Notes under the pieces: model-generated | What the model was told of the DNA's origin: nothing | Database searches by the model: none | Seen by the model: the letters and a program-made list of their open reading frames with translations, nothing else | Made by a program: the position numbers and the translations under genes | Part shown: one piece after another, positions 6,969 to 42,575 of the stretch | Layout: every line of letters starts with the position of its first letter | Position numbering within the stretch: the first letter of the stretch is position 1 | NCBI GenBank assembly: GCA_016283075.1 | Contig: JAEEMF010000001.1 | Location: 1 to 49,849 of the forward strand | DNA from: Bacilli bacterium | Lineage (GTDB): Bacteria > Bacillota_I > Bacilli_A > RF39 > UBA660 | Direction: 5' to 3' | DNA: 49,849 bases

Positions 6969-6997
6969 ATTATAACAAACAAGGTATAAATTGTCAA
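6969..6997 (-). promoter_or_regulatory. Consensus sigma-A promoter
   Basis: TTGACA-N17-TATAAT with TGn extension (TGTTATAAT). Confidence 0.8.
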
Positions 6998-7004
6998 GAA
7001 AAAG

Positions 7005-7280
7005 TTATTTATCTAAATTAATTTCTACTAAAGTACATCCTTGATTATAGTAATAAGTTTTATAAGCGATAACTTTCTTATTCTTTCTTAAAGTATCACT
7101 TGTAGTAGTTCTAAGAAGTCCTGAACCAATACCATGTACTATACAGAATAAATTATTCTTTTGTTTATAGTTATCATTTATAAAATCATTTATTAGTACT
7201 CTAGCTGTTTCACTATTTTCACCGTGAAGATCTATTTTCGGAAGATTATCAATGTAAATGACTTCGTCTATATGCATCAT
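7005..7280 (-). CDS. Stand-alone Smr domain protein
   Basis: IDLHG, IVHGIGSGLLR and C-terminal NQGCTLV; no MutS domain attached. Confidence 0.9.
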   Translation of the reverse strand: MMHIDEVIYIDNLPKIDLHGENSETARVLINDFINDNYKQKNNLFCIVHGIGSGLLRTTTSDTLRKNKKVIAYKTYYYNQGCTLVEINLDK

Positions 7281-13236: not shown

Positions 13237-13250
13237 ATTATCCCTCGTTT

Positions 13251-15104: not shown

Positions 15105-15105
15105 C

Positions 15106-16986: not shown

Positions 16987-17034
16987 ATTCTCACTTCCCT
17001 ATCCTAACATTATTAGTATAACATAAATAAACAT

Positions 17035-17061
17035 AAAAAAAAACAGATAAAAATCTGTTTT
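17035..17061 (-). terminator. Intrinsic terminator after Hpt-REC copy 2
   Basis: AAAACAGAT-aaaa-ATCTGTTTT with a long U-tract on the minus strand. Confidence 0.65.
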
Positions 17062-17839: not shown

Positions 17840-17878
17840 ATCTTCACCTTCTCTATAATCATTATAACATATAATTTA

Positions 17879-21877: not shown

Positions 21878-22459
21878 TTATTTACCTAATTTATTTTCTT
21901 TATACCAGTTAATGAAGTCAAATTTAGCATTACCCCAGAACTTTGATTCATAATCTCTATCTATCTCTCTTAATTCACTAAGTGTCTTAGTTTCTCCATC
22001 AGGAATATAGAAGTGATCATGCCATCTTCCTAAGTTTCCTTTTGACTCATATGATATAGTTCCTGTACTAGAACCAGTAAATACTACTGGGTCTTTACCA
22101 GGTTCACAATAAGCAAATGTATCTTCAAGTCTAGCTTTTCTATTAGTTTCATTTTTAATAAGTTCTAAGAAGTGTTCTACTCCTATCTGCTTATCAAAAT
22201 ATGCATTATATGGTCCTGGAAGACCTCCTAGACAATCTAAATACAAGCCTGAATCTGATTTAACACATGGTCTACCTAGTTTCTCAGCCATATATTTTAC
22301 TGAGAACTCTACTACCTCGCCACATGTTTTTGCTTGTATTTCAGGTATTTCAAAATCTGGAGTAGCTATTTCAATATCAATACCATTCTTTTCAAATAGT
22401 CTTTTAGCTTCTTCAAATTTACCTTTATTAGTAGTTAAGTATATTACTTTATTGTTCAT
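21878..22459 (-). CDS. Ham1/ITPase-family NTP pyrophosphatase, divergent (no SHR motif), copy 1
   Basis: TTNKGK, EIQ, DSGLYLDCLGGLPGPY and IPDGETKTLSE; the canonical SHR is replaced by FWGN. Confidence 0.85.
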   Translation of the reverse strand: MNNKVIYLTTNKGKFEEAKRLFEKNGIDIEIATPDFEIPEIQAKTCGEVVEFSVKYMAEKLGRPCVKSDSGLYLDCLGGLPGPYNAYFDKQIGVEHFLELIKNETNRKARLEDTFAYCEPGKDPVVFTGSSTGTISYESKGNLGRWHDHFYIPDGETKTLSELREIDRDYESKFWGNAKFDFINWYKENKLGK

Positions 22460-23301: not shown

Positions 23302-24138
23302 TTATAAATTTAAAATATCTATAATATATTTTATTGAATAAATAGTATCTTCAAACATAACATTCTTAGCATATTTAAGTTTCTTTTGGTAGTTACTAAA
23401 TAAATCATTTAATATGGTACTATCTTTAATTATTTCATAAATTTCATTTAAATAATCTTTATTTAAAATAGAATTTCGATGTTTAAATGTTCTTTCTATT
23501 GCTTTAATTAATGTTTCAGTATTAATACTTTCCTTGTGTTCATTTATTAGCATATAAATGTCATAAAAGTCTTTTGCTCTAGTTGTAGATATATTTTTAC
23601 TAATAATACTTTCAAATTTTTCTGCAATTATCGTTTCAATAGTATATGCCATAATATTAATTCTTTTATCTTCAAAAATAGATTTATATTTATATATTAT
23701 TTCTCTTGGAGTAATTATGTCTCCTGTTGATACTTCTATAAAGAAGTGAGTTTTAATTCTATCAAACTCAGCATATACATTAATTCTATAACCACCATAT
23801 TCATCTTCTAATCTAATATCATTGATGCTATCAATTCTAAATGATATTCCATCATTAGTATCTATAGATAATATTTCATTAAAGATAGTTAGAAGAGATT
23901 CTGTATTTAATGAAATACCTTTTAAAGTGGCATCTATATCCTTAGTAGTACGCATATCACATCCAATAATAGATGAAAGAAGCACACCACCTTTAAGGAT
24001 AATATTATCTCTATATTTGCTTTTTTCAAGTCTCATTAATACATGTTCAAAAAAATACATTTGATGAAGATGTAATGATAAATCATTACTACCATTAGCT
24101 TTATTTTTTATAATTGCATTTAATTTGTCACTATTCAT
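23302..24138 (-). CDS. AbiEii-family nucleotidyltransferase toxin (type IV TA)
   Basis: ILKGGVL...RTTKDID, TGDIITP, ETIIAEK and TRAKDFYD motifs; translationally coupled to the upstream antitoxin. Confidence 0.92.
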   Translation of the reverse strand: MNSDKLNAIIKNKANGSNDLSLHLHQMYFFEHVLMRLEKSKYRDNIILKGGVLLSSIIGCDMRTTKDIDATLKGISLNTESLLTIFNEILSIDTNDGISFRIDSINDIRLEDEYGGYRINVYAEFDRIKTHFFIEVSTGDIITPREIIYKYKSIFEDKRINIMAYTIETIIAEKFESIISKNISTTRAKDFYDIYMLINEHKESINTETLIKAIERTFKHRNSILNKDYLNEIYEIIKDSTILNDLFSNYQKKLKYAKNVMFEDTIYSIKYIIDILNL

Positions 24139-24731
24139 TAAAAGATAACCTGCATAATATCTACAACTTCTTTTTCAATATTTAATTTTTTAGAATATTT
24201 TGTAAGTTTTAAAAGATCTTTATCTTTTCTTTTAGCATACCATTTCAATGCCTTAGTATAAATTTCTTTATCCATATGATTTTTATCTTTAATAATGTCA
24301 CAAATAGTTCTTTCTAAATCATAACATTTAATATTCATTCCAAATGGAGATTTGATAGTTTCCACACCTAGATAAAATATTTTATTATCAACATAATGAA
24401 GTAATACTGAATCAATATTTTGAAGCGATCCACCATATCCACGAGGAACAGTTACATCAAAATAAAGTGGAGTTCTGTCTGATAAATCATGTAAAAATAA
24501 TGATGTAGTATAAGAAAAAATAGCATTCTTACTTTTAGAAAGAATTTTATAATACTCATCAGTAATTATATTAGGAAGTGAATAAAATCCAGTTGATATT
24601 CTTTCTAACAATTCGCCATCACACAATCTTTTTAAAGCCATTTTATTTAAACCATTATCTACTACTTCTTTTGTAGTAATATAACCGCCGTTTTTTTGAA
24701 CTAACTCCAAAATTTTTTCTAAATCAGTCAT
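24138..24731 (-). CDS. AbiEi-family antitoxin (type IV TA)
   Basis: N-terminal wHTH (GYITT...LERISTGFY), FSYTTSLFLHDLSDRTP and YDLERTICD. Confidence 0.92.
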   Translation of the reverse strand: MTDLEKILELVQKNGGYITTKEVVDNGLNKMALKRLCDGELLERISTGFYSLPNIITDEYYKILSKSKNAIFSYTTSLFLHDLSDRTPLYFDVTVPRGYGGSLQNIDSVLLHYVDNKIFYLGVETIKSPFGMNIKCYDLERTICDIIKDKNHMDKEIYTKALKWYAKRKDKDLLKLTKYSKKLNIEKEVVDIMQVIF

Positions 24732-25769: not shown

Positions 25770-26201
25770 TTATATCATATCTAAATACATACTTACTGCT
25801 TTTATTTGATAAGGAAGAAAAAGTTTAGAAAGTATTTCTTCTTTACTTACTTTAACAAGAGAAGACTCTTGTTCTAAAGGAGTATATTCTTTATCAGAAA
25901 CACTTACTACATAAAAATGTGCAAGAGAATTTACATAATGACCATGATTAGTTACCCAGTAACAGTCTATTGTTATTAAAGGAGTAGTACTTTCTATTTC
26001 AAGTCCTGCTTCTTCCATAAATTCTCTTTTAAGAGTCTCTATATGAGACTCGCCTTCTTCAATTCCTCCACCTATTAAAGAATAATCATTATTATTAATA
26101 GTTATATAAAAACTATTATTTTTATATACTATTCCAAAACAAGTTTCTCTAAAAAAGTAATCTTTATCTATTTCTTTAATACCAAGAGTTATTTTATCCA
26201 T
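25770..26201 (-). CDS. NUDIX hydrolase
   Basis: Nudix box GGGIEEGESHIETLKREFMEEAG. Confidence 0.92.
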   Translation of the reverse strand: MDKITLGIKEIDKDYFFRETCFGIVYKNNSFYITINNNDYSLIGGGIEEGESHIETLKREFMEEAGLEIESTTPLITIDCYWVTNHGHYVNSLAHFYVVSVSDKEYTPLEQESSLVKVSKEEILSKLFLPYQIKAVSMYLDMI

Positions 26202-26594
26202 TTATTTAAAATACTCCTTTAATTTATCCATAATGTCATATTTATTAAGTTCTTTTACATTTATAAATGTAGGTTCATAGTAGTTAGAATCACTCATTCT
26301 ATCAAGTTCTTCTCCATTTAAAGTGAAATTACCACTTATATACTCACAGTTATAAATGTATTCTACTCTATCTTCTGTTTCATTTGTAAAAGCTAAATCT
26401 TTTACATTTACATCTATATTAAGTTCTTCTTTTAATTCTCTTTTTAATCCGTCTATTACTTCTTCACCAGGATTTATTCCTCCTCCTGGTAAAACATAAT
26501 ATTCTTTAGTAACTCCATCTGTAATCTTTCTTCTAAAGATTACAGCTAAACCTTTATCAGTAATAACAATACCTCTAGCACTAATTCTTTTCAT
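26202..26594 (-). CDS. NUDIX hydrolase
   Basis: Nudix box PGGGINPGEEVIDGLKRELKEELN. Confidence 0.92.
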   Translation of the reverse strand: MKRISARGIVITDKGLAVIFRRKITDGVTKEYYVLPGGGINPGEEVIDGLKRELKEELNIDVNVKDLAFTNETEDRVEYIYNCEYISGNFTLNGEELDRMSDSNYYEPTFINVKELNKYDIMDKLKEYFK

Positions 26595-27294
26595 TATTAT
26601 TTCTCCTTAATCTAAAATCTAATATATTTCTTAGCACTTTATTTGCTGATGATTCTTCTATTGTTCTATCATCACGATACTTAATTTCAGTAAAATTATC
26701 GACTTTAATTGTTGGAATAGATGCACCTATAGCAGCATCGACACCTCTTTTAGAATCTTCAATACTAATACATTTATAAGGTTTTAATTGAAGTTTATCT
26801 AAAGCAATTAAATATTCTGCTGGATTAGGTTTTAATAATTCATGAGGAACATCATCCCTAGCAATAATAATATCAAATGTATTATGTAAATCATATAAAT
26901 CTAACAACTTTGAAATATACATTCTTCTACAAGTAGTAACTAAAGCAACAATTAAACCCGAATCCTTTATTTCTTTAATAAGGTTAAAATTGTCTTTTGC
27001 CTCCTCTTCTCTAATTACACTTTCAAAAAATGGCATATAATTTGCATATAATTTTTGATATATAGTATCATCTGATACATCTCGAATACTTTGATATTCA
27101 TTTCTTTTGAAGTCAAGTAATTTAGCATTTTGTTCTAATTCATACTTTTTATATTCATCTTTAGATATAACTACATTATATTCTTTAAGCAGAATATCTT
27201 TATAAGCCTCAAAAAACGCTTTTTCACTATTGATTAGCGTACCATCTAAATCAAGTAAAAGCGCTTTTATATTATCTATATTTATTTTATTCAT
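26581..27294 (-). CDS. HAD-superfamily (subfamily IA) phosphatase
   Basis: DLDGTLINSE (motif I), VTT (II), KPNP (III), IEDSKRG (IV). Confidence 0.92.
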   Translation of the reverse strand: MNKINIDNIKALLLDLDGTLINSEKAFFEAYKDILLKEYNVVISKDEYKKYELEQNAKLLDFKRNEYQSIRDVSDDTIYQKLYANYMPFFESVIREEEAKDNFNLIKEIKDSGLIVALVTTCRRMYISKLLDLYDLHNTFDIIIARDDVPHELLKPNPAEYLIALDKLQLKPYKCISIEDSKRGVDAAIGASIPTIKVDNFTEIKYRDDRTIEESSANKVLRNILDFRLRRNNNEKN

Positions 27295-28333
27295 TATTTT
27301 CTTTTACAAGAAGGATACTAATAAGTTCTTTAAGGCTTTGTGAATGAAATATTATAGAGTTCTTTAGATCAATGCTATTCTTTTTAATGATTTGAAGCAT
27401 ACTATCTTCACCAGCAATTATTAAATTGTCAATTGAAATATTTAATTTACCAAAGAAATGTTTAAAGAATACCTCATTTAATTTGGTAATATATGTAACA
27501 TTACATTTATTTCTATTTAATAATTCTGCAACAACAAGTAATTCTTTGTTATCAAATACTAAATTATCTACAAAATCATCAACAATAGGTTCTAATACAG
27601 AATATAAGCTTTTATTCTTGCGATATTCGCCCCATTTTATATTTGAACCTGCTGCTTTACTTATCTCAGCTTTATATTTTTTAAAGAATTCTTTTTCATA
27701 TTTAACTAAATAATCATCTATATCAACATATATACTCTCTGTTTCATTTTTAGAAGAGTATTTATCATTAATATTTTTAGCAACTACATCTCTATAAGGT
27801 CTAGTTTCTTCTTTCAAGCCTAAATCTTTGAAATTATTAATAAAAGTTCTTAGAGCATAATTAAGTTCTTCTCTTTTAGCATCTAATTCAGAAATAATTT
27901 CAAATTCAACAAAACCACCTATATTAGGTAATTTATCTATCATAATACTATATTTGTATTGGCCATCTTGCTTTGTAAAAGTAAGACGTTCTTTCTCTAC
28001 AATAACATAACTATAGAAACCAAGTGATGTAAATAAAGAAACAAAGTTTTCATATTCATCAATATTTGCACTTATATTATTTTCTAATTTGCAATATTGA
28101 CCAAGAAGTGAACTAGATTTACCTTTAAATGTAACTTCCATTCTAGAATTATTTGTTTTTCTAATTCTTAAACATGTTCTATTTTCAATAAATTCACTAT
28201 TAATGTCTGTAAAATATTCATCACTTTCAACTTTGGAATCAAGTTCAGCAAAGCCAAGTTCTTTTATTCTTTCAATTAGTTTCTTAGAATCTAAGCAGTA
28301 ATACTTTTCTTCTGTTTCAATTTTAATAAGCAT
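27287..28333 (-). CDS. CYTH (CyaB-like triphosphate tunnel) domain fused to a degenerate HAD-like domain
   Basis: ETEEKY, DEYF, LRIR, TFKG, KER and FVEFE CYTH motifs in the first ~180 aa; the C-terminal half begins IYVDIDDYL. Confidence 0.8.
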   Translation of the reverse strand: MLIKIETEEKYYCLDSKKLIERIKELGFAELDSKVESDEYFTDINSEFIENRTCLRIRKTNNSRMEVTFKGKSSSLLGQYCKLENNISANIDEYENFVSLFTSLGFYSYVIVEKERLTFTKQDGQYKYSIMIDKLPNIGGFVEFEIISELDAKREELNYALRTFINNFKDLGLKEETRPYRDVVAKNINDKYSSKNETESIYVDIDDYLVKYEKEFFKKYKAEISKAAGSNIKWGEYRKNKSLYSVLEPIVDDFVDNLVFDNKELLVVAELLNRNKCNVTYITKLNEVFFKHFFGKLNISIDNLIIAGEDSMLQIIKKNSIDLKNSIIFHSQSLKELISILLVKENNE

Positions 28334-28336: not shown

Positions 28337-29371
28337 TTAATCCTCCTTCTTTATGTATGCAACCATATATTTACCTAGAATATTAGTAAACATATCATAT
28401 TTAATGTCATATTCTTTAAAAGATGAAGAAACTACGCTTTTAAATTGCATCTCATTTAAGAAGCATTCTCCGTTGTCTTTTAAAAATTTTCTATATAACC
28501 ATTTATTTAATAATTTTGGAAGACCAAGATGTTCTCTTGGATCAATAATTTCTATAATAACAATTCCAGTTTTAGAAATATTATCCATAAGATTTAGTAA
28601 ATTATTGATACCTATTAAACTATTCATATGATGAAGTGTATTTTTACAAAATACAACATCATAACTATTATTTTTAATATTATTGTATTCAACATTGTCG
28701 TTAGTATAAACAACATTTTTATATGGAGTTTGAGATAGATATTTTATGCAAACATCATTACCAACTACTGTCTTATAACCATGTTTTGAAGCAACTTCAA
28801 ATAAATCTGTACTATCACCACATGATATATCAATTATAGATTCTTTGTTTGGTAAAATATCATAAATCATTTTTTTAAATTCAGCTTTTTTTCTTTTCTT
28901 TTCAGTAAGTATATATCTCTTTATATATTTTTCATGAAATTTATATCTATTAATATATTTTAAAGATGTTTCAATCTCTGTATTAACTGTTGAAGATATA
29001 TATGAAAGATTAAAATTATCTATATGAAATTTAACAAGCTTTTTATATTTATCAGGGATTTGATTAATTGGAACTCTGTTAAGTTCAGATGATTCCACAT
29101 TCCCTACACGAAATGCAAAAACAAGAGTATCATTGCAAAAACAAACAGGATAGTAATTCTTTATCTTTAATTTATAAGTATTTGATATTTCATCAACAAG
29201 ATTAAGTATAGAATTAGTCTTATTATATTCAGGGAACTTATCTTTCTCTAAGTAATAATAATATTTATCATCAAAAACTAAAACAAGTAGTTTTTTATTA
29301 GAAACAGGCAATTTTAAAACTTTAAGATTATAATGTTTCTTATAAAATCTAGTTAAATCATTAGTTTTCAT
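28337..29371 (-). CDS. Class I SAM-dependent methyltransferase with an uncharacterised N-terminal domain
   Basis: IIDISCGD (motif I variant), VVGND and YDVVFCKNTLHHM. Confidence 0.78.
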   Translation of the reverse strand: MKTNDLTRFYKKHYNLKVLKLPVSNKKLLVLVFDDKYYYYLEKDKFPEYNKTNSILNLVDEISNTYKLKIKNYYPVCFCNDTLVFAFRVGNVESSELNRVPINQIPDKYKKLVKFHIDNFNLSYISSTVNTEIETSLKYINRYKFHEKYIKRYILTEKKRKKAEFKKMIYDILPNKESIIDISCGDSTDLFEVASKHGYKTVVGNDVCIKYLSQTPYKNVVYTNDNVEYNNIKNNSYDVVFCKNTLHHMNSLIGINNLLNLMDNISKTGIVIIEIIDPREHLGLPKLLNKWLYRKFLKDNGECFLNEMQFKSVVSSSFKEYDIKYDMFTNILGKYMVAYIKKED

Positions 29372-30248
29372 TTAGTATTTCTTCCTCTATAAATAAATTT
29401 GCAGCCTTAGTAAGATTATTGTTTATCTTAACAATATTTATTTCCATTTTAGGTAAATTAACATCTATTTCCAATTTCTTAATTATTCCAGCATCTACTA
29501 AATAACCTACAGCATCCTCTACTACATATCCTACTCCTAAATTTCTTCTTACGGAGTCAATAATTAACTCTTCAGTACCGAATTCAAGAGTAATATTAAC
29601 ATTAAGAGAGTTCTCGTCAAATATCTTATTTATATTTTTTCTAAGAGAACTTCGAGATATAGGTAAAATAATATCTTCATTTTCTAAATCTTTTATAGTA
29701 GCGATATCATTATTATTTTTTGTTGAAGCTATAAAACAAGTATTAAGAGAGCAAACCGGTGTAACAGAAATATTGTTATATATAGTATCAATCGGAGATG
29801 AATCAATGACAAAATCTAATTTTCTTGCTTCTAATTGTTCCATCATTTGATTAGTAGACATATCAATTAATTCAATTTTAATTTTAGGATGTCTAGCTTT
29901 AAAACTATCAACTTTATTCATAAGATAATTTCTAACAATATGTGATTGAACACCTATAACCAATGTGCTATCTTCAACATCATTAACAGCCATCAAAGCT
30001 CTATTACATGAATAAAGCAGATCATTGGCCTCTTTTAAATAATTATATAATATTTCACCCGATTGTGTTAAAACAATACCTTTGTTTGCTCGAAAAAATA
30101 ATTTGACATTTAAATCTTCTTCAAGTTTTGACATACTCTTACTAATAGCAGGTTGTGAAACAAATAATTTATTTGATGCTTCCAAAAAACTTTTAGAACT
30201 TGCCACCTCATAAAATATTTTTAAAGAATTAAAGTTAATGTTATTCAT
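29361..30248 (-). CDS. LysR-family transcriptional regulator
   Basis: SFLEASNKLFVSQPAISKSMSKLEEDLNVKLFFR HTH, a substrate-binding domain and typical length (295 aa). Confidence 0.95.
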   Translation of the reverse strand: MNNINFNSLKIFYEVASSKSFLEASNKLFVSQPAISKSMSKLEEDLNVKLFFRANKGIVLTQSGEILYNYLKEANDLLYSCNRALMAVNDVEDSTLVIGVQSHIVRNYLMNKVDSFKARHPKIKIELIDMSTNQMMEQLEARKLDFVIDSSPIDTIYNNISVTPVCSLNTCFIASTKNNNDIATIKDLENEDIILPISRSSLRKNINKIFDENSLNVNITLEFGTEELIIDSVRRNLGVGYVVEDAVGYLVDAGIIKKLEIDVNLPKMEINIVKINNNLTKAANLFIEEEILNEN

Positions 30249-30271: not shown

Positions 30272-30300
30272 ATTATAATTTTTATTTGTTATAATGTCAA
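30272..30300 (-). promoter_or_regulatory. Consensus sigma-A promoter of the lysR operon overlapped by an inverted repeat
   Basis: TTGACA (30295-30300)-N17-TATAAT (30272-30277); the ATTATAA-N10-TTATAAT dyad spans the spacer. Confidence 0.8.
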
Positions 30301-30372: not shown

Positions 30373-30933
30373 TTATTTATTGTTTTTCCCTAGCAAATAT
30401 TTTGCAATGTCATCATAAGCACTTGTATTCCATAACTTAAATCTTTCACTATCTGGAAAATGCGCCATGGTTTTATCATGACCTTCAGGTATAAAAATCG
30501 GATCAATTCTAAGCCCATATTTTCCACTTTTTCTTTTGGCAATAGAGCCTGGTGTAATGCAAGTAAATACTACTGGTTCTTTTCCATATTCACAATAAGC
30601 AAATGCTTCTTTATAATACGCAGTTCTATTTGTCTTGCCTTTCATTAATTTTAAAATACCTTCAGTACCAATTTGATTCATAACATCATGTGTGTATGGA
30701 CCTGGGAACCCTCCTAGTGCTTCTATAAAGAATCCAGTATCATTTTTTAAAACAGAACACTTTAATTTATCACTTGCTTCCTTAGCTGAATGCATTGCTA
30801 TTTCCTCTACTGAATCAGATTGGATTTCAATTGTATCCATTTTTTCATTGTCAACATCAATACCATATGGATTTAAAAACTGTCTTGCACTAATTAATTT
30901 TTTCATATTACCTGTAACTAAAATTACTTTCAT
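30373..30933 (-). CDS. Ham1/ITPase-family NTP pyrophosphatase, divergent (no SHR motif), copy 2
   Basis: VTGNMKK, EIQSDS, NDTGFFIEALGGFPGPY and DPIFIPEGHDKTMA; SHR is replaced by WNT. Confidence 0.87.
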   Translation of the reverse strand: MKVILVTGNMKKLISARQFLNPYGIDVDNEKMDTIEIQSDSVEEIAMHSAKEASDKLKCSVLKNDTGFFIEALGGFPGPYTHDVMNQIGTEGILKLMKGKTNRTAYYKEAFAYCEYGKEPVVFTCITPGSIAKRKSGKYGLRIDPIFIPEGHDKTMAHFPDSERFKLWNTSAYDDIAKYLLGKNNK

Positions 30934-30942: not shown

Positions 30943-31548
30943 CTAATTATAAAAATTTTTCATAAAGTCCTTATTTTTTATTAATTTTAAACTTTTTGTT
31001 TTACCACTTTCGCTGCTTTCATAAATATCCATAAAATCACAATAAAGTTTTTCCATATTGTCTGTATAAGATATTAATAAATAATCGTATAAATCGATGC
31101 TTTTTTTAGTTTGTTCGATTCCTAATGAATATCGTTGTATCCCCCTATTGCCCATTCTTCTCAAAACTTCTTCTTTATTTGGTGGCAATATATATATCAA
31201 TGATGAATCAGGTCTAATATTTTTTAAAGAAACAGCACCTTGATACCCCATATTAAACAATATTTGTTTATCTTTTAATAATTCCAATGCTTTTTTCAAG
31301 GTCCCATAATAATTCCCATCATGTCTTACATATTGTATTAATTCATCATTATTTACATATTCGAAAAACTTTTCTTGCGTAATAAATTCAGTATTTCCAA
31401 CTTCTCCAATTCTACGTGGACGAGTAGTTATACCTGGCGCTTCCTCAAAAATTTTATTTTTCTTTTTTAAATACTCAATTAATTCTGTTTTACCAGCACC
31501 TGAAGGCCCTGATAAAACTATTGGTGAATAGCCTTCACATATAAGCAT
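30943..31548 (-). CDS. Guanylate kinase-like nucleoside monophosphate kinase, divergent
   Basis: SGPSGAGKT P-loop, TTRPRR-GE, GNYYGT, QGA and IYILPP; base-contact residues altered. Start placed at ATG 31548 after GGTGA. Confidence 0.85.
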   Translation of the reverse strand: MLICEGYSPIVLSGPSGAGKTELIEYLKKKNKIFEEAPGITTRPRRIGEVGNTEFITQEKFFEYVNNDELIQYVRHDGNYYGTLKKALELLKDKQILFNMGYQGAVSLKNIRPDSSLIYILPPNKEEVLRRMGNRGIQRYSLGIEQTKKSIDLYDYLLISYTDNMEKLYCDFMDIYESSESGKTKSLKLIKNKDFMKNFYN

Positions 31549-31549
31549 A

Positions 31550-32092
31550 TTAATCACCAAAACTTTCTAAAGAATCACGTATATCTTCAACCCAAAAGAA
31601 ATGAACCCAACTATCTTTTTTTGACTCATAACCTGCATTAAATGTCATAATTGGATTATCGTTTTGAAAACTTTCATCAACAACCAATGCATAGAGATCG
31701 CTTGTATCTATATTCTTTTCTTTAAGATGTTTAATAACTCCCGATGATGTTTTACCTTTATATAATATATCATCAAAAATGATGAATTTTGTTTTCCCTG
31801 GTTCTATATATTCACTAATCAATTTAAATTCTCCATAGTCATGTGGAGTATCACTATTAGTCATTTTACATTGCATAAATGAAATATTTCTAAAATTTAG
31901 TAATTGTGAAACAGTTACTGCTAATGGCAATCCACCTCTTGCTATACCTAAAAAACCCAATGTAGGATCGTTAAGATCATATTTGTTTTTTATATCGTCT
32001 GCTATTTTTTTGCAGGCATTCATATACATATCATAATTAAAAATATTATCATCATTACATAATATTTTATCATTAATAAAAATTTTTTTCAT
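31550..32092 (-). CDS. Type I phosphoribosyltransferase, Gpt/Hpt1-like, divergent
   Basis: GIARGGLP, PRPP loop IIFDDILYKGKT and C-terminal WVHFFW. Confidence 0.85.
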   Translation of the reverse strand: MKKIFINDKILCNDDNIFNYDMYMNACKKIADDIKNKYDLNDPTLGFLGIARGGLPLAVTVSQLLNFRNISFMQCKMTNSDTPHDYGEFKLISEYIEPGKTKFIIFDDILYKGKTSSGVIKHLKEKNIDTSDLYALVVDESFQNDNPIMTFNAGYESKKDSWVHFFWVEDIRDSLESFGD

Positions 32093-32766
32093 TATATCTC
32101 CTCGTTCTTTTTAAATTTTGATACATAATATAAAAATGGGGTATCTAGAAAAGCTATTATTATTTTGAAAATAATAGTAGTAATAGCCATTTCAATAACA
32201 TTTGCGAAAGGAATAACACCTAAATAAGCAATAACTACAAATATAATTGTATCTGATAATTGACTTACTATAGTGCTACCGTTATTACTAACCCATAATC
32301 TGTTATATTTATTTTTTAATATTTTATACATTCTAGCATCAATAAACTGACTTAGAATACAATTTATAAGACTTGCAATTGTTATTCTAGGCAAATAATT
32401 AAATACTATTTTTAATGATTCATTTGTCGTATCAACAGCACTCGGAACATATTGAAGAAACATACTCATCGATAAAGTAAATATAAGAAGTGTTAAAAAA
32501 CTAAAAATTATTGCTTTTCTCGCTTCTTTTTCACCATATATTTCACTAAGAATATCAGTTGTTAAAAAAATTGCACCATATGAAATATTACCTAGTGAAG
32601 TCGTCAAGCCAAACATATCTACTATTTTAATTGCTTGTATGTTACAAATTATAGTTGAAACACACATCCAAACAAATAATCCAACCCTTCCATATTTTTT
32701 ATAACAAGCACATGTAATTGAAAATGTGCCCAGCAAATAAATTGCTGAAATAAATAAATTAACCAT
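32092..32766 (-). CDS. yhhQ: Queuosine precursor transporter (YhhQ/QPTR, Vut_1 family)
   Basis: CNIQAIK, GNISYGAIFLTTDILSEIYG, PRITIAS, SQFID, NNGSTIVSQLSDT and KIIIAFLDTPFLY motifs; AAGGAGG RBS. Confidence 0.9.
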   Translation of the reverse strand: MVNLFISAIYLLGTFSITCACYKKYGRVGLFVWMCVSTIICNIQAIKIVDMFGLTTSLGNISYGAIFLTTDILSEIYGEKEARKAIIFSFLTLLIFTLSMSMFLQYVPSAVDTTNESLKIVFNYLPRITIASLINCILSQFIDARMYKILKNKYNRLWVSNNGSTIVSQLSDTIIFVVIAYLGVIPFANVIEMAITTIIFKIIIAFLDTPFLYYVSKFKKNEEI

Positions 32767-32772
32767 ACTTTT

Positions 32773-32824
32773 TCCTCCTTATGCGTTTATTATATCTCGC
32801 AGATTAAAGAGTTAATCATACCGG
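32773..32824 (-). promoter_or_regulatory. Candidate SD-proximal pseudoknot or riboswitch-like element
   Basis: GAUUAA-CUCU-UUAAUC hairpin, then UGCG...CGCA hairpin directly before AAGGAGG; the CUCU loop can pair with the SD. It does not match canonical preQ1 consensus by eye. Confidence 0.3.
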
Positions 32825-32871
32825 TTTTTTATAATTATAATAAGAAATAGTTATTAAAATAATTTAATAAG

Positions 32872-32916
32872 AAAAAATAAAAAAATTGCATATCAACGAA
32901 TTTGACACACAATTTT
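32872..32916 (-). terminator. Intrinsic terminator inside the long leader upstream of yhhQ
   Basis: AAAAUUGUGUGUCAA-auucg-UUGAUAUGCAAUUUU: a 15-bp stem with 3 G-U pairs that form only on the minus strand, followed by UUUAUUUUUU. Confidence 0.7.
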
Positions 32917-33194
32917 ATAAAAATCAAATATAAATATTTGGCATACACAGATAAATAAAAAGTTATACCAAATACCAATTTTTTTAAATAAACATATAGA
33001 TAATTAAACGGATTATAATATAATATTTTTTAATCAAAAACTTTTATAATTGTATAAGTATTTTTATATATTAAAATGATTTATACTAATATAATTAATT
33101 ATAATATCAATTTTAAAATATACATTATATTTATATCATTTCTATTATAAAAACAAGACATAATTTTTTTGTAAATAATAGATAAAATAATTTT

Positions 33195-33665
33195 TTATTT
33201 ATCTTTATTGATAATATGTTTAAATTCTGATGAATTAATCATATCTTTAACACATGCTGGTTGAATAGATAAATCTTTAACTTTATCTAAATCATACCAA
33301 GATTCATGTTCACCTGGGTGATCTAATACTTCGATATTATCAAAGTTTTTAAATGCTTTACCATTAACTTCATATAAGAATAAGTATTCATGATAATTTT
33401 TATTATCAAGAGAGAAGAAATTCTCAACAAGTCCTATTAACTTAGCATCTTCTTTAGAAACTTTAGTACCAGTTTCTTCTTCAATTTCTCTTATAAGTGC
33501 AGATAGACTATCTTCACCTGCTTCACATCTACCTCCAACTGGTACTAGATAATCAGTAAGATCATTTGCTTCTAATAAAACTTTACCTTCCTTTTTAATA
33601 AATGCACAGCATCGTACATTTAGTTTGTAGTCTCCTACCATTATACTTAAATCATTTTTTGCCAT
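33195..33665 (-). CDS. NUDIX hydrolase
   Basis: Nudix box GGRCEAGEDSLSALIREIEEETG and the ENFF...YHEY subfamily pattern. Confidence 0.92.
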   Translation of the reverse strand: MAKNDLSIMVGDYKLNVRCCAFIKKEGKVLLEANDLTDYLVPVGGRCEAGEDSLSALIREIEEETGTKVSKEDAKLIGLVENFFSLDNKNYHEYLFLYEVNGKAFKNFDNIEVLDHPGEHESWYDLDKVKDLSIQPACVKDMINSSEFKHIINKDK

Positions 33666-33695: not shown

Positions 33696-34181
33696 TTATA
33701 CTTGGTATAATTTATTAATGTTTTCTAATTCTTTATTTACTTTTTCTACTTCTTTTCTATCTCCTTCGATAGCTATTACATACATTTTTGGTTTAGAATA
33801 ATCATCTATTTCAAATGTAACATTGTTTTTCTTATAAACATATCTTGTACGTTTATTATCAGCACACAGTTTAAATTCTAAAGTGTCCAACATAGAATTA
33901 ATGAACTTTCTATTTGTATCATCTACTTTAATAGATAATGACTCTAATGAAATATTTAAATTTTCTTCTCTACTAGTAATATTTTTAAAATCAAAAGTTG
34001 TTTTTCTTCTTTCATTTACTACTGTAGTAGTAAGTCTTGCTATTACATTAGAAAGTTTTTCATTGTCATAAACCTTCCTATTTTGTAAGACAGCTGGTTC
34101 CTTTCTATAACCATTTTCCTCACAATAAGTGATATAAGGTTTTAAATTACTAACCTTATAACTATACTCGTATTCTTCCAT
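33696..34181 (-). CDS. CYTH domain protein
   Basis: EYEYSY, ARLT, FDFK, RTRYVY, FEIDDY and IAIEG, a CYTH-like motif order. Confidence 0.75.
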   Translation of the reverse strand: MEEYEYSYKVSNLKPYITYCEENGYRKEPAVLQNRKVYDNEKLSNVIARLTTTVVNERRKTTFDFKNITSREENLNISLESLSIKVDDTNRKFINSMLDTLEFKLCADNKRTRYVYKKNNVTFEIDDYSKPKMYVIAIEGDRKEVEKVNKELENINKLYQV

Positions 34182-35143: not shown

Positions 35144-35164
35144 TTTTATTCCTCCTATTCTCCA

Positions 35165-35232
35165 AGACTCGCCATTAAGGTGCATATTTGCTTTAAACCT
35201 TTTCTGCGCGGTTGTAGAGTAAGGCTCTACAC
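35165..35232 (-). ncRNA. L21 ribosomal protein leader
   Basis: GUAGAG-cctta-CUCUAAC-type hairpin (GTAGAG/CTCTAC), then CAACCGCGCAG...AAGGU...ACCUU...UGGCGAGUCU, matching the Firmicute L21 leader pattern and position. Confidence 0.8.
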
Positions 35233-35285: not shown

Positions 35286-36167
35286 TTACACTAATTTAAA
35301 CTCTCTTGAAATAATCCTCTCATCAGAGCAATATTTAATGACATAATCATTATTTTGCCTACAAATAATAATACCTACGGTCTTATTTTCAAAAGGAGTT
35401 TTCATATTCATATCAATGTAGTTCATATAAGTCATTATTTGGCCTGTATGTTCTTTCTTAAGTTCAGTTACTTTTAACTCCACTACAACGTAACATTTGT
35501 ATTTAATATTATATAAAAGAAGATCAATATAATTATATCTATCACCTATTTTAATTGGATATTCACTTCTTATATAAGTAAAACCATCCCCTAATTCATC
35601 TAAAAAGTTTTCTATATCTTCTAATATTATTTTTTTAAGCACTTTCTCTGAAATAAAAGTATAGCTATTACTTTTATTAATTATAATGGGATTCTTTACA
35701 AAATCAATTACATTTGATTCATCCTTATTTATTAAATTATTCTTTGTATTATCAGGTAATCGTTCGTACTCTCTATACTTTATTCTTTCACGTAATTGTC
35801 TTACTGATAAATTATTTAATTCAGAAATTTTTATATAGTACTGGAACTTATTATCGTCGAACCAAAGGATTTCGCAATAATGGCTCCAACTTAATTTGGC
35901 AGACAGTGTCTGCCATTTTTGAAACACTTTATATAGTTGTCTCATATTTCTTAGATTTCTTTGACTATATCCCTTTCCTAACTCTTTAGTTAATCTTATT
36001 GAATACTCTTTAATAATACCTTCTCCATACTTATTACCTGCATCTAATAAAAGTTTACCAACATTATAATAGGTATCCAGATCACTTTTGTTAATAGAAT
36101 AATGTTTAACTTTTCTATTAACTTCATTATTAATTAGTAAATTCTTAATTTCATTATAATAATTCAT
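35286..36167 (-). CDS. YhcG/DUF1016 PD-(D/E)xK nuclease family protein
   Basis: GYSQRNLRNMRQ, LSWSHY, FLDELGDGF, YIDLLLY, VVVELK and GQIMTYMNY. Confidence 0.92.
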   Translation of the reverse strand: MNYYNEIKNLLINNEVNRKVKHYSINKSDLDTYYNVGKLLLDAGNKYGEGIIKEYSIRLTKELGKGYSQRNLRNMRQLYKVFQKWQTLSAKLSWSHYCEILWFDDNKFQYYIKISELNNLSVRQLRERIKYREYERLPDNTKNNLINKDESNVIDFVKNPIIINKSNSYTFISEKVLKKIILEDIENFLDELGDGFTYIRSEYPIKIGDRYNYIDLLLYNIKYKCYVVVELKVTELKKEHTGQIMTYMNYIDMNMKTPFENKTVGIIICRQNNDYVIKYCSDERIISREFKLV

Positions 36168-36942: not shown

Positions 36943-37392
36943 CTATTTTTTATTATTAAACATATATATTTCTAAAGTATATTTTACTTCATTTGTTATA
37001 TTAGGATTATTTTTAATACTAGAAAGTGGTTCCCACTTATATGAATCATGCTCTGTTAGTATTATATTATTTATATTTTTTACCTTAATTGCAAAATTAT
37101 ACTGACGAGCTTTCTTACCACTGGATGAAAGATAATCAAATGTGTTTATAAAAGAAAGAACACTTTCTACATCAAGATTTGTTTCTTCTTTTACTTCTCT
37201 AATAAGAGCATCATAAATACTTTCGTTAGGTTCTAGATTACCACTTGGTAGTTCGTCTATACCTCCCATAAAATCATCTGACTTTCTAGTAAGTACTAGT
37301 ACTTTATCGTCATTTACTATTACAGCTCCTACAACATTTTTGATAATACCAACATCTTTTGATTTATTAAGTAATAAATCATAGAAATTCAT
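36943..37392 (-). CDS. NUDIX hydrolase (MutT-like)
   Basis: ELPSGNLEPNESIYDALIREVKEETNL and EHDSYKW; ATG 37392 after GGGGAGG. Confidence 0.9.
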   Translation of the reverse strand: MNFYDLLLNKSKDVGIIKNVVGAVIVNDDKVLVLTRKSDDFMGGIDELPSGNLEPNESIYDALIREVKEETNLDVESVLSFINTFDYLSSSGKKARQYNFAIKVKNINNIILTEHDSYKWEPLSSIKNNPNITNEVKYTLEIYMFNNKK

Positions 37393-37405
37393 AATATACC
37401 TCCCC

Positions 37406-39211
37406 TTAGTTTTTAATTTCAAAACCAGTTCTTTTAAATGATTTTAATAGTTCATAATTTGAATAAAATATCATAGTTGGTCTACCATGTGCACAGTTAA
37501 ATGGATTATCACATTTAGATAAGTCTTCTAGAAGCTTTTCCATTTCTTTAATAGTTATATTTGTATTAGCTCTTATACTCATTTTACAAGCACACATTGC
37601 ATATACTGAGTTTAAGAATTTTTCTATATCAAAGTTCTTTTCTTCTTTTATAACGCTTTCAATAATTCTTTTAATTATTACTTCTTCATTTTTATTAATC
37701 CATACTGGATGAGATTTAATAATAATAGAATTTAATCCAAATTCTTCTACATCAATACCTAATATATCAAGAACTTCTTTATTTTCTTTAAGTATTATAA
37801 AATCAGTATTTGTTAGTTCCATAGTAATTGGAATAATAAGGTCAGTCTTACTAGTAGTTTTTTCTTTTCTAGCTTTTTGTATTCTTTCAAGATTAATTCT
37901 TTCTGCTGCGGCATGTTCATCTACTAAATACATACCATCTTCTGACTGACAAACTATAAATGTACCGTGTATTAATCCTACTGGATACATTTTAGGAAAA
38001 CGACTTTCTTCTTTTACAGGTTCTTCTATAACTACGTCTTCCTTACATGTACATTTATCACTTACTATTAAATCTTCATTTACTGCTATATAAGGAGCAC
38101 TATCATTTACTACATTAAAATTAAGTGCTATTTCTTCATAAGATTCTTTTTTATTAATTTTTTCATTTATTTCATCTTTTAAAGTAGATTCTTCATCATT
38201 AAGATGTTTCTCTACTTTAGGAATAATTGTCTTATGATCTAGTTTTTCTTTTATTAAAGATGTAATTAACTCAGTAAGAGATTCCATCTTACTAAACTTA
38301 ATATCCATTTTAGTAGGATGAATATTAACATCTATTAAAGATGGATCTACTTTAATATCAAGTACTACTATAGGATATCTATTATCTGGTTTATATGAGT
38401 GATATGCATCATTTATAACTCTATTAAGTTCTATATTTCTTACTACTCTACCATTTACTACTATAACAATATAGTTTCTATTAGCTCTTGTTACTTCTGG
38501 ATAACTTATATAACCATTTATTATATAGTCATCATTTTCACCTTTTATTTCATACATTTTTTTTGCTACTTCAAAGCCATATATATCTTTAATAGTTTTT
38601 AAAAGTTCTCCTCTACCATCTGTTTTTAAGATAGTTTGATCATTATTTGTTAAACTAAACTTTATATCAGGATGAGATAAAGCTATTTTATTCATATAAT
38701 CAGTAACACTTGCTAGCTCTGCATATAAACTTTTAATATGTTTAAGTCTAGCTGGAGTATTATAAAATAAATCATTAACACTCATAATAGTTCCGCGTCT
38801 AGCATCACCATTTGTTTGATTAATTAATTTACCTCCAGAAATATGTACTACTGTTCCTACATCTCCTGTACTAGTTTTAAGTACTATATTAGATACACTT
38901 GCTATAGAAGGAAGAGCTTCTCCTCTAAACCCTAATGTATTTATTCTAAATAAATCATCTTCACTTAAAAGTTTACTAGTAGCATGTCTTTGAAAAGCAA
39001 TAACTGCATCTTCTTTATCCATACCTTTTCCATCATCTATTACTCTTATCATTTTAGTACCAGCATCTTCTAGTTCTACACTTATACTTTTAGAATCTGC
39101 GTCTATACTATTTTCTACTAGTTCTTTTACTACGGAAGAACATCTTTCTACTACTTCTCCTGCTGCAATCTTATTTGCAAGTAGTTCATCCATTACATGA
39201 ATTTTACTCAT
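37406..39211 (-). CDS. mutL: DNA mismatch repair endonuclease MutL
   Basis: IAAGEVVER, ELVENSIDA, GFRGEAL, DVNIHPTK, DEHAAAER, ACK and CAHGRP. Confidence 0.98.
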   Translation of the reverse strand: MSKIHVMDELLANKIAAGEVVERCSSVVKELVENSIDADSKSISVELEDAGTKMIRVIDDGKGMDKEDAVIAFQRHATSKLLSEDDLFRINTLGFRGEALPSIASVSNIVLKTSTGDVGTVVHISGGKLINQTNGDARRGTIMSVNDLFYNTPARLKHIKSLYAELASVTDYMNKIALSHPDIKFSLTNNDQTILKTDGRGELLKTIKDIYGFEVAKKMYEIKGENDDYIINGYISYPEVTRANRNYIVIVVNGRVVRNIELNRVINDAYHSYKPDNRYPIVVLDIKVDPSLIDVNIHPTKMDIKFSKMESLTELITSLIKEKLDHKTIIPKVEKHLNDEESTLKDEINEKINKKESYEEIALNFNVVNDSAPYIAVNEDLIVSDKCTCKEDVVIEEPVKEESRFPKMYPVGLIHGTFIVCQSEDGMYLVDEHAAAERINLERIQKARKEKTTSKTDLIIPITMELTNTDFIILKENKEVLDILGIDVEEFGLNSIIIKSHPVWINKNEEVIIKRIIESVIKEEKNFDIEKFLNSVYAMCACKMSIRANTNITIKEMEKLLEDLSKCDNPFNCAHGRPTMIFYSNYELLKSFKRTGFEIKN

Positions 39212-42115: not shown

Positions 42116-42150
42116 AAAAAAGAGGTTTTAAAACCTCTTTTTTATTTTAA
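42116..42150. repeat. Bidirectional terminator, copy 1 of a ~34-bp direct repeat
   Basis: AAAAAAGAGGTTTTAAAACCTCTTTTTTATTTTAA; near-identical to 42576-42608. Confidence 0.75.
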
Positions 42151-42552
42151 ATAAAGTTCTACTTCATATTTAATAGATTTCCAAACATCTCTTAAACCCG
42201 AATAAGATAATTTATCATATACGTCATCAAAAGGAACCCAAATAGTTGGATGAGTATCAGGACTATCATTATTACTAGGTCCTCCATCCTTACCTAAAAA
42301 GTAATACATTCTTACATCTTCTCCACCAGATGTAACATATTCTTCGATATATATACATTCCTTTTTAAGTAAAATGCATTCTCTTTTAGTTTCCTCTGCA
42401 GTTTCTCTAAGAGCACATTCTTCAACTGTTTCGCCTAGTTCTATATGCCCTTTTGGAAAAGAAAAATCATTTTGCTTTTCACGATATACAAGCGCGACTG
42501 TTTTATTAGTAGGATTAATCATTATACAACCAGCTTTAATAACCTTACTCAT
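42142..42552 (-). CDS. NUDIX hydrolase (Ap4A-hydrolase-like FPKGH type)
   Basis: FSFPKGHIELGETVEECALRETAEET; ATG 42552 after GGAGGT. Confidence 0.9.
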   Translation of the reverse strand: MSKVIKAGCIMINPTNKTVALVYREKQNDFSFPKGHIELGETVEECALRETAEETKRECILLKKECIYIEEYVTSGGEDVRMYYFLGKDGGPSNNDSPDTHPTIWVPFDDVYDKLSYSGLRDVWKSIKYEVELYLK

Positions 42553-42575
42553 TTGTACCTCCAAATTTTACTAGT

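Follow-up and report, generated by a model that had tools for sequence, protein, structure and literature searches.

Altered base-edge residues in a Gpt-like phosphoribosyltransferase from a Bacilli operon suggest specialisation for a non-canonical base

A 49,849-nucleotide stretch of DNA from a Bacilli bacterium (contig JAEEMF010000001.1 of assembly GCA_016283075.1; hereafter the window, G+C content 26%) encodes a divergent Gpt-like type I phosphoribosyltransferase of 180 amino acids, which we call PRT (31550..32092, assigned from the open reading frame (ORF) listing and PF00156). Coordinates are those of the window, and its features lie on the minus strand unless noted otherwise. In PRT, the two residues that correspond to the contacts of the O6/N7 edge of the purine base in Gpt are exchanged, Asp for Tyr111 and Lys for Asp139, and the gene is translationally coupled in a four-gene operon encoding a YhhQ-family transporter, PRT, a guanylate kinase-like (GMK-like) protein and a HAM1-family pyrophosphatase. 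The sequence suggests that PRT is catalytically competent and has become specialised for some base that is not guanine, xanthine or hypoxanthine. We consider it probable that PRT is dedicated to a non-canonical base and works within its own nucleotide pathway; that the substrate of this pathway is a 7-deazaguanine is a tentative proposal, which we hold to be somewhat less likely to be right than wrong.

The motifs that handle phosphoribosyl pyrophosphate (PRPP) and pyrophosphate (PPi) are retained in PRT. Pfam model PF00156 matched residues 23–137 at 31.6 bits (gathering cut-off 26.3; E = 1.2e-7), and the PRPP motif reads FIIFDDILYKGKT, with the hydrophobic strand, the two acids and the x-x-x-x-G-x-T of type I PRTs. 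E. coli K-12 gpt was taken from NC_000913.3, translated and aligned with the PRT family, for which an alignment of 16 PRT relatives (A1) also served as the basis of the profile and of the structural model. The PRPP/5′-phosphate loop DDILYKGKT (D107–T115; 31748..31774) pairs with Gpt D88–T96, D107/D108 and G113/T115 corresponding to D88/D89 and G94/T96. The ARGGLP loop (31925..31942), of a type that we take to bind pyrophosphate, places R52-G53-G54 on Gpt R37-G38-G39 and is invariant in A1. At the C terminus, the hood motif WVHFFW (W162–W167; 31592..31609) pairs W162-V163-H-F-F-W167 with Gpt W134-I135-E-Q-P-W139, so that W162 falls on Gpt Trp134, which presumably stacks on the base; a W-x-x-F-[FP]-W hood is common to PRT and its Asp-type Gpt-like relatives. 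Translation of these three segments agrees with the reading of them in the initial annotation. Specific to the PRT family is the flexible-loop signature KMTNSDTPHDYG (K76–G87; 31832..31867), recognised from conservation in A1; within this KMTNSDxxHDYG loop M77, N79, S80, D81, D85, Y86 and G87 are invariant in A1, as are E156 and D160 elsewhere in the protein.

PRT fell short of the models for named enzymes, scoring 25.3 bits against the NCBIfam Gpt model NF006613 (cut-off 138), 27.1 bits against the HPRT/HGPRTase model TIGR01203 (cut-off 150), 32.3 bits against the NCBIfam "OPRT-like" equivalog (cut-off 115) and 19.2 bits against the UPRTase family PF14681 (cut-off 27); no NCBIfam PyrR model matched at E ≤ 0.01. 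With the A1 profile, the best solved relative was the XGHPRT of H. pylori (7kl6; 31.4 bits, E = 1.5e-6), aligned over residues 14–175 and thus taking in the C-terminal W..FFW motif; HPRTs came next at about 1e-3, and solved PyrR chains matched residues 96–144 only, at no more than 19.3 bits. The initial annotation had described a 6-oxopurine-PRT-like scaffold. The full-length match to a Gpt-type enzyme, set against the partial match to PyrR, bears this description out, as does the alignment of both loops and the hood with E. coli Gpt, and the grouping with PyrR or UPRT that the annotation had named as speaking against its proposal did not occur.

The AlphaFold (AF2) model of PRT built from A1 had a predicted local distance difference test score (pLDDT) of 84.7 and a predicted template-modelling score (pTM) of 0.82, with the lowest confidence in residues 71–90 of the flexible-loop region (pLDDT 66–76). 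A Foldseek search with this model gave 361 matches in the Protein Data Bank (PDB) at E ≤ 0.001. The top matches listed were all PRTs, namely archaeal HGXPRT/purine PRT, PyrR and Gpt, with template-modelling (TM) scores of 0.6–0.7; judged from the model, fold alone does not separate these subfamilies. Its sequence features indicate that PRT is purine-PRT-like and descends from the small Gpt (XGPRT) lineage. Because it lacks the Gpt features Asp92 and Lys115 and fails the equivalog cut-offs, PRT should nevertheless not be filed as Gpt, HPRT or PyrR. A tblastn search of 50,697 phage genomes for a phage origin of PRT returned no match; a Foldseek search of BFVD for viral kin gave generic viral PRTs only (14–18% identity), and look-alikes in the Atlas were just clusters named "PRT domain protein" and "radical SAM", partly viral, which offered no functional lead.

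The base-edge exchanges concern one residue in the PRPP loop and one beyond it. Tyr111 (codon 31760..31762), placed by alignment and translation within D107-D108-I-L-Y111-K-G-K-T, stands where E. coli Gpt has Asp92 and human HGPRT has Asp137, the N7 contact. Asp139 (codon 31676..31678), placed by alignment and overlooked in the initial annotation, stands where Gpt has Lys115, the counterpart of human HGPRT Lys165, which contacts O6 and N7; here the charge is reversed. The pairing of Gpt Asp92 with human Asp137, and of Gpt Lys115 with human Lys165, follows from motif position and from the Gpt structures. In the available text on human HGPRT, D137 is termed invariant and lies no more than 2.8 Å from N7 in transition-state complexes (PMC11089518), and Table 2 of PMC2228302 gives, for the HGPRT–GMP complex, distances of 2.3 Å from O6 to Lys165 NZ, 3.6 Å from N7 to Asp137 OD2 and 3.4 Å from N7 to Lys165 NZ. 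These data back the N7 role that the initial annotation had assigned to the loop Asp. The loop norm that it had cited for HPRT and XGPRT holds as well, E. coli Gpt reading D88-D89-L-V-D92-T-G-G-T and the Asp being kept in 40 of 109 rows of the family tree described below.

Both Tyr111 and Asp139 are invariant in A1 (16/16), which indicates that Tyr at position 111 is not a chance variant. Among the 26 closest clusters found by a word-based search, position 111 is Tyr in 24 and Gly in one (P0012), the remaining cluster being a fragment that lacks the loop. An exhaustive profile search with the PRT family, covering 1.84 billion representatives, returned 253 proteins at E ≤ 1e-3, of which 51 remained at 1e-10 and 21 at 1e-30. 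Strong matches show [DE]D-I-x-[YF], and weak ones show either DD-I-x-D-[ST]-G together with W-I-x-F-P-W or a Gly-type loop. For the tree we used 109 rows (proteins of 140–200 amino acids with the hood motif, plus the window PRT and E. coli Gpt), omitting fragments, longer proteins and 18 redundant close relatives, and made a "quick" IQ-TREE run from which the trait column was excluded. The column of Tyr111 holds Asp in 40 rows, Tyr or Phe in 30, Gly in 17 and other residues in 22. Of the 30 rows with Tyr or Phe, 28 have Asp139, and of the 40 with Asp at position 111, 22 have Lys. A single 42-row branch contains the entire set of 30 Tyr/Phe rows, and four changes are needed to explain the trait on the tree, against a mean of 26.5 after shuffling. 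The Asp-to-Tyr exchange that the initial annotation had pointed out is thus real, conserved and clade-defining. A further set of small Gpt-like proteins (among P0077–P0175; 17 of the 109 rows) carries the Gly-type loop DDIVG[STY]G, usually with Asn or Asp in place of the Lys; by their sequences these proteins appear to be another uncharacterised specificity class.

The first gene of the operon (32092..32766) encodes a membrane transporter of the QPTR/YhhQ family (COG1738, Vut_1), which matched the "queuosine precursor transporter" model TIGR00697 at 178.4 bits (cut-off 50.95) and PF02592 at E = 3e-42. Its TAA stop codon overlaps the ATG of the PRT gene (TAATG, base 32092 being common to both). 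According to the available text of PMC11130926 and PMC5372724, the family imports preQ0, preQ1 or queuine as free bases. The third gene (30943..31560; PF00625, E = 2.3e-19) is that of a GMP (guanosine monophosphate) kinase-like nucleoside monophosphate (NMP) kinase with a remodelled base site. Its listed TTG start at 31560 overlaps the PRT gene by 11 nucleotides, and an alternative ATG lies at 31548, one base after the PRT stop. This ATG, which gives 201 amino acids, is likely the true start, since a 201-residue database copy (P0180) is 100% identical. Nine bases past the GMK-like gene begins the last gene (30373..30933; PF01725), encoding a HAM1/RdgB-family nucleoside triphosphate (NTP) pyrophosphatase paralogue with a changed base pocket; AGGAGG stands 7 nucleotides before its ATG. 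A LysR-family regulator gene (29361..30248; PF00126 and PF03466) follows directly downstream, and a TTGACA-17-TATAAT sequence that matches the sigma-70-type consensus at 12 of 12 positions (30272..30300) lies between the HAM1 and LysR genes. On the strength of this consensus match we read the operon as four genes with its 3′ boundary after HAM1. Upstream of yhhQ, Rfam and promoter scans covered an AT-rich leader/promoter region of 428 bp (32767..33194), where promoter-like sites occur at 33151–33083 in a number not above that of shuffled sequence. None of the four operon proteins matched a PADLOC model, and no other gpt/hpt or gmk gene was found in the window. The position of PRT in an operon that could lead from base to NMP and on to nucleoside di- and triphosphates (NDP and NTP), a setting overlooked in the initial annotation, speaks for a dedicated nucleotide pathway in place of simple salvage.

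The GMK-like protein scored 96.7 bits against the guanylate kinase model TIGR03263 (cut-off 160.45). It keeps the P-loop and the arginines of TTR, and has altered forms of the GMP-site motifs of canonical enzymes (S-x-TTR, G-x-x-Y-x-F, E, YG[TS] and D-I-D-x-Q-G). Compared with the real E. coli Gmk, it is without the "SH" before TTR and without the "HY" of GEHYFF, and proteins of its family read LI[QE]Y for FLEH, YYG[TVM] for YYGT and FN[MVI]G[YL] for LDIDWQ; the window protein has LIQY for FLEH and FNMGYQG for LDIDWQG. The Gmk residues are taken to contact the atoms of guanine as in the yeast and E. coli structures; a literature search found no paper naming the guanine-contact residues of guanylate kinase. 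GMK-like proteins form a discrete family of 37 clusters at 134 bits or more, followed by a gap in scores, beyond which (P0219 onward) stand canonical guanylate kinases with S-x-S-x-TTR, DY-F and D-I-D-W-Q-G preserved. At least nine pairs of PRT and GMK-like clusters share the same longest-contig size, which fits co-location of the two genes.

The operon HAM1 protein matched PF01725 at 112.7 bits (cut-off 22.5; E = 2.6e-32) and stayed below the cut-off of the RdgB model TIGR00042 (124.6 bits against 145.35). It retains TGNxxK, EIQ, NDTG and GFPGPY of E. coli RdgB, and its base-pocket motifs are changed, with GLRID for GFGYD and LWN for SHR. Both FGYD and SHR are lost in all 15 operon-linked HAM1 copies, from related loci and the window: in place of GFGYD, clade A reads GLRID and clade B GWSWD, and the SHR position is mostly [LV]WN, with LWD in locus L002 and LWS in L014. 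A second HAM1/RdgB-like paralogue of 193 amino acids, 37% identical to the operon copy, is encoded beside folD (21878..22459); it is also without SHR, reading FWGN, so that two atypical HAM1 enzymes occur within 9 kb. As PRT, the GMK-like protein and HAM1 each keep the motifs that handle phosphate and change those that face the base, a shared non-canonical base is the simplest explanation. The initial annotation had proposed from Tyr111 a substrate without a protonatable N7, namely a 7-deaza or 7-alkyl purine. The exchange of Lys115 for Asp, the motif loss in the GMK-like protein and the changed HAM1 pocket strengthen the idea of a position 7 unlike that of guanine, and the naming of a 7-deaza or 7-alkyl purine stays as conjectural as before.

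A scan of genome contigs with PRT gave 17 loci. Fifteen (L001–L015) come from metagenome-assembled genomes (MAGs) of uncultured gut or rumen "Bacilli", Erysipelotrichaceae or "Tenericutes" and encode PRTs 41–75% identical to that of the window; the other two are Gpt-like genes of Campylobacterales, 22–26% identical and without the operon context. A GMK-like gene is next after PRT in 15 of 15 loci, although L015 is broken by frameshifts, and HAM1 is present in all 13 loci of sufficient extent. A yhhQ gene lies directly 5′ of PRT in 12 of the 15, the match being weak in L005. The link with YhhQ on which the initial annotation had leaned is thus strong at the window, with its TIGR00697 and PF02592 matches and overlapping stop and start codons, and is seconded by the conserved order and by one gene fusion; it does not extend to the remaining three loci, where YhhQ is not beside PRT. 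The LysR domain recurs in L002, directly 5′ of yhhQ (6248–7108) and 38% identical to the window protein, which suggests that regulator and operon may be functionally linked.

Clade B (L003–L015) has additional genes. Between GMK-like and HAM1 stand a gene for a FemAB-like aminoacyl-transferase and a fusion of a thymidylate-kinase-family domain with a SAM-methyltransferase (13/13); HAM1 is followed in 10 of 13 loci by a protein of about 325 amino acids without a Pfam or NCBIfam match, and upstream lies a WYL-HTH regulator (12/13) with GreA-C-domain proteins. The clade B order, for example at L007 5392–13095, is GreA-C, WYL-HTH, (YhhQ), PRT, GMK-like, FemAB-like, kinase::methyltransferase, HAM1 and the protein of about 325 residues, and from its gene content the cluster looks like a tailoring pathway on the same core. 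A 344-residue methyltransferase of the window was considered as the counterpart of the clade B kinase::methyltransferase and rejected (E = 0.078). In L015 (8001–13133 of CP091726.1, a complete-chromosome MAG) the PRT, GMK-like, FemAB, kinase::methyltransferase, HAM1 and 325-residue genes are spread over several reading frames, and are either pseudogenes or the product of homopolymer assembly errors.

Several relatives of PRT are fused or adjacent to other proteins. P0176, known from one 1.4-kb contig, is a YhhQ::PRT fusion, which could be an artefact. P0177–P0179 combine a Tyr-type PRT, 42–46% identical to that of the window, with a radical SAM/SPASM domain in one protein, and P0178 comprises six members on five contigs of up to 61 kb. 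The fused domain matches a W-cofactor maturase (67 bits), MoaA (53 bits) and the PADLOC prokaryotic viperin (pVip) model (36 bits), all weakly. Its look-alikes in the Atlas are stand-alone radical SAM proteins of about 282 amino acids from phages and Bacillota, and a search of phage genomes with the PRT::radical SAM fusion reached jumbo-phage radical SAM genes only, in alignments at 25–30% identity that covered between one quarter and one third of the query. At L002, a CYTH gene and then a viperin-like radical SAM sequence stand directly 5′ of LysR-yhhQ-PRT, and the latter matched the PADLOC pVip model "associated with kinases" at 137.5 bits (E = 1.4e-40) and NF038283 at 129 bits (cut-off 180). 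On the plus strand of that locus (4902–7126), the CYTH gene is followed by an ORF of 558 amino acids that joins the viperin-like radical SAM region (residues 3–232) to a full LysR (residues 266–545); it may be a real fusion, read-through of a truncated pVip or an assembly error. Beyond these occurrences, no homologue of the L002 viperin-like gene or of the fused radical SAM domain was found in the window or in L001–L017. The CYTH proteins of L002 and the window were rejected as close counterparts, being only distantly alike (28% identity).

Taken together, the conservation of the PRPP, PPi and hood elements favours an active enzyme that works on a bicyclic, purine-shaped base, and the coupled loss of the N7 general base and of the O6/N7 Lys suggests that the O6/N7 edge of this base is unlike that of guanine. 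In the pathway that we propose, the co-translated QPTR/YhhQ transporter would bring the base into the cell and PRT would join it to PRPP to form the 5′-mononucleotide. The GMK-like enzyme would raise this to the diphosphate, and general kinases to the triphosphate, which the HAM1 paralogue would cut back to the monophosphate, as a safety valve or as a step of the pathway. In some lineages the nucleotide probably passes on to the fused radical SAM domain, the viperin-like neighbour or the FemAB-like and kinase::methyltransferase proteins of clade B. The direction of flux and the part played by HAM1 are inferred. Our best guess for the substrate is a 7-substituted 7-deazaguanine, of which preQ1 fits best and preQ0 or queuine would be alternatives: a cationic aminomethyl group on C7 would lie at the site of HGPRT Lys165 and might form a pair with Asp139, and a carbon at position 7, where no N7 is left to protonate, makes a proton shuttle unnecessary.

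A number of observations weigh against this interpretation. The branch that holds all Tyr/Phe rows has a Shimodaira–Hasegawa-like approximate likelihood ratio (SH-aLRT) of 89 and is unstarred in a "quick" tree, which makes monophyly of these rows likely and leaves it unproven, and the presence of Phe instead of Tyr in some members indicates that the Tyr hydroxyl is not essential. The counts over 15 loci overstate their independence, L007–L013 being near-identical genomes, and YhhQ is missing at its position in L003, L004 and L013 (3/15), where a WYL regulator abuts PRT. The window YhhQ fails the model for the E. coli preQ0/preQ1-type transporter (NF008406; 65.7 bits against 252), and the family is heterogeneous as described in the available part of its literature. 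A gathering-score Rfam scan of the whole window, covering the region before the operon, found an L21 leader and no riboswitch, and a permissive scan of 32700–33250 gave two matches only, both far under gathering scores, and no preQ1 riboswitch; no tgt or que gene was found in the window or in the flanks of the loci (up to 8 kb per side). The identity of the substrate is read from two residue positions and one neighbouring gene, and an acidic residue where the O6-binding Lys used to be would be just as compatible with a 6-amino purine or a pyrimidine. The associations with radical SAM and viperin-like genes are reminiscent of the chemistry of cytidine, uridine or guanosine triphosphates (CTP, UTP or GTP) and leave room for another base. 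Finally, a kinase and a pyrophosphatase acting on one nucleotide would seem to make a futile pair, unless HAM1 serves as a safety valve or has a different target.

The same four gene families would also compose an ordinary salvage route, in which guanine, xanthine or hypoxanthine is taken up, converted to GMP and phosphorylated by a GMP kinase, with HAM1 cleaning up inosine and xanthosine triphosphates (ITP and XTP) and the odd residues reflecting fast evolution in a reduced genome of 26% G+C. The classic task of HAM1 enzymes is to remove the ITP and XTP formed during salvage of hypoxanthine and xanthine, neither the hood nor the PRPP motif is damaged, and the window, with its 26% G+C, holds no further gpt/hpt or gmk. 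We nevertheless regard such a route as improbable, because the O6/N7 Lys and the Asp called "invariant" in 6-oxopurine PRTs (available text of PMC11089518) have given way to a conserved, covarying pair, because the GMK-like family of 37 clusters always lacks the motifs of canonical Gmk and is thus ill-suited to be an essential housekeeping enzyme, because the window has a second HAM1 paralogue, and because the PRT family is rare, with 21 representatives at E ≤ 1e-30 out of 1.84 billion. Still less probable, in our estimate, is that PRT takes no part in salvage and is a PyrR- or PurR-like sensor of PRPP or nucleotides, or that the operon runs in reverse as a disposal route, HAM1 splitting NTP to NMP and PPi, PRT converting these to base and PRPP and YhhQ exporting the base. 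PyrR structures are among the Foldseek matches (TM about 0.6), HAM1 would yield both substrates of the reverse PRT reaction, and an enzyme deprived of its general base could be unable to catalyse the forward reaction. PyrR probably has Tyr at this loop position too, a caveat that the initial annotation had added. PRT equilibria, however, favour nucleotide formation; the sequence match to PyrR is limited to residues 96–144 and reaches no more than 19.3 bits, whereas that to the Gpt type spans the full length at 31.4 bits, and no PyrR model of NCBIfam matched at E ≤ 0.01. All PRPP and PPi motifs and a conserved flexible loop are kept, as in an enzyme, and a dedicated NMP kinase is unfit for either a regulator or a disposal model.

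A third possibility is that the operon supplies a nucleotide analogue. PRT would then act on a pyrimidine or a 6-amino base (of the cytosine, uracil, adenine or 2,6-diaminopurine type), the triphosphate would feed a viperin-like or other radical SAM enzyme, and HAM1 would guard the host pool. The PRT::radical SAM/SPASM fusions P0177–P0179 and the pVip-like gene 5′ of LysR-yhhQ-PRT in L002 agree with this, as do the thymidylate-kinase-family::methyltransferase fusion and WYL regulator of clade B and the AbiE toxin–antitoxin pair in the region of the window; a nucleotide kinase is associated with 12% of bacterial viperin genes in the available text of 10.1101/2023.09.13.557418, and Asp at the site of the O6-binding Lys would suit an exocyclic amino group. 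Even so we consider analogue supply unlikely. The pVip-like gene is found at one of 16 loci (the window counted) and does not reach the NCBIfam cut-off of 180, the radical SAM domain of the fusions resembles viperin weakly (36 bits) and has no homologue in the window or the loci, no operon protein matches PADLOC and no match was found in the 50,697 phage genomes. Furthermore, the Trp hood, the GMP-kinase scaffold and the QPTR transporter suggest a purine-shaped base, and the UPRT and PyrR models score under those of Gpt and HPRT.

PRT resembles Gpt/XGPRT of E. coli and H. pylori (PDB 1A95–1A98 and 7KL6) in being a small type I PRT of the 150–180-residue class with an RGG loop, an acidic pair followed by G-x-T and a Trp-containing W-x-x-F-[FP]-W hood. 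It differs in its KMTNSDxxHDYG loop, in an N-terminal extension of about 15 residues, in an identity of about 17% (from Foldseek alignments), and in the location of its gene in an operon with a transporter, a kinase and HAM1. PyrR, the pyr attenuator with weak UPRT activity, shares the type I fold and the size (TM about 0.6 by Foldseek), but has no full-length similarity to PRT and no Gpt hood motif. A precedent for PRPP-dependent ribosylation of 7-deazaguanines that opens a pathway at the nucleotide level is found in the tubercidin and toyocamycin pathways of Streptomyces. In the available text of PMC6112128, TubE is a 7-carboxy-7-deazaguanine (CDG) PRTase and ToyH a proposed deazapurine PRTase for preQ0, and the tubercidin pathway includes a Nudix hydrolase step. 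The base of TubE and ToyH is made in the cell by GCH I, CPH4 synthase and a radical SAM enzyme, whereas PRT would be fed by a transporter and no such genes lie near it.

Two other systems share parts with the operon. Salvage of queuosine precursors by YhhQ and TGT uses the same transporter family, but there the free base goes straight to tRNA through TGT, with no PRT, NMP kinase or HAM1. Viperin and CMPK2-type modules also pair a nucleotide kinase with radical SAM remodelling of an NTP; unlike them, the kinase here has the guanylate-kinase fold and not that of CMPK2 or thymidylate kinase, and most loci are without a radical SAM gene within their flanks of up to 8 kb per side. A PRT or base transporter is not described for viperin systems in the part of 10.1101/2023.09.13.557418 that was available, where the words "phosphoribosyl" and "transporter" have 0 occurrences. 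Our literature search found no paper joining YhhQ to a phosphoribosyltransferase or describing the four-gene operon, and none on a module of a 7-deazaguanine PRT and a guanylate kinase. Enzymes of this class, and the concept of a PRT for deazapurines, are already known; what is new is the signature of two residues, a kinase and a pyrophosphatase that have co-evolved with it, and an operon fed by a transporter.

The remainder of the window contains several genes for nucleotide-related and defence proteins. About 6 kb from the operon, at 23302–24731, are an AbiEii nucleotidyltransferase toxin (PF08843, E = 4.8e-34) and an AbiEi-like antitoxin (PF13338), a pair of the type IV toxin–antitoxin/abortive infection class. 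Six NUDIX hydrolase genes occur in 50 kb, all on the minus strand (25770–26201, 26202–26594, 33195–33665, 36943–37422, 42142–42564 and 48844–49335), an unusually high density for nucleotide-pyrophosphate hydrolases; that at 33195–33665 is directly 5′ of the operon leader. CYTH (triphosphate tunnel) proteins flank the operon region, at 33696–34181 and 27287–28333. The latter, of 348 amino acids, scores 67.7 bits on the model of class IV adenylate cyclases (cut-off 57.95) and so passes it, has a C-terminal part of about 170 residues that is unassigned, and is preceded by a methyltransferase and followed by a HAD phosphatase. At 12457–19561, three paralogous hybrid histidine kinases (560–626 amino acids) alternate with two 259-residue proteins with a C-terminal receiver, an array that looks like a tandemly duplicated sensing module. 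A YhcG/DUF1016 gene of the PDDEXK nuclease family (35286–36167) lies between radC and the rplU-prp-rpmA ribosomal operon; the L21 leader (RF00559; 47.1 bits) is at 35155–35223. The plus strand encodes an arylsulfotransferase of 644 amino acids (4548–6482; PF05935, E = 1.6e-96), a family uncommon in small-genome Bacilli.

If PRT were after all an ordinary guanine PRT, the "invariant" catalytic Asp of 6-oxopurine PRTs would be dispensable. If it is a dedicated enzyme for a non-canonical base, as we propose, it would represent a new specificity class of purine PRTs, for which the two-residue signature (Asp to Tyr/Phe and Lys to Asp) would serve annotation, and the operon would provide three co-evolved enzymes, a PRT, an NMP kinase and an NTP pyrophosphatase, for the enzymatic making of modified nucleotides. 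Queuosine precursors are micronutrients contested by gut microbes and their host, and an operon that phosphoribosylates and phosphorylates them, or some other unusual purine, would mean a further fate for such bases, beyond those known. The radical SAM and viperin-like links hint at antiviral nucleotide chemistry that starts from scavenged bases. It is conceivable, though doubtful, that gut Bacilli turn scavenged preQ1 or a related precursor into ribonucleoside mono-, di- and triphosphates under the control of HAM1, besides using it for tRNA, and that in sister lineages a fused radical SAM enzyme, a viperin-like enzyme, or an aminoacyl-transferase together with a methyltransferase makes from them a new class of modified nucleotides with an antiviral or signalling role. 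In the current view, as given in the available text of PMC10516641, 7-deazaguanines reach nucleic acids solely by base exchange after synthesis. A pathway to preQ1 nucleotides, if it exists, would contradict the view that base exchange is their only way of entry.

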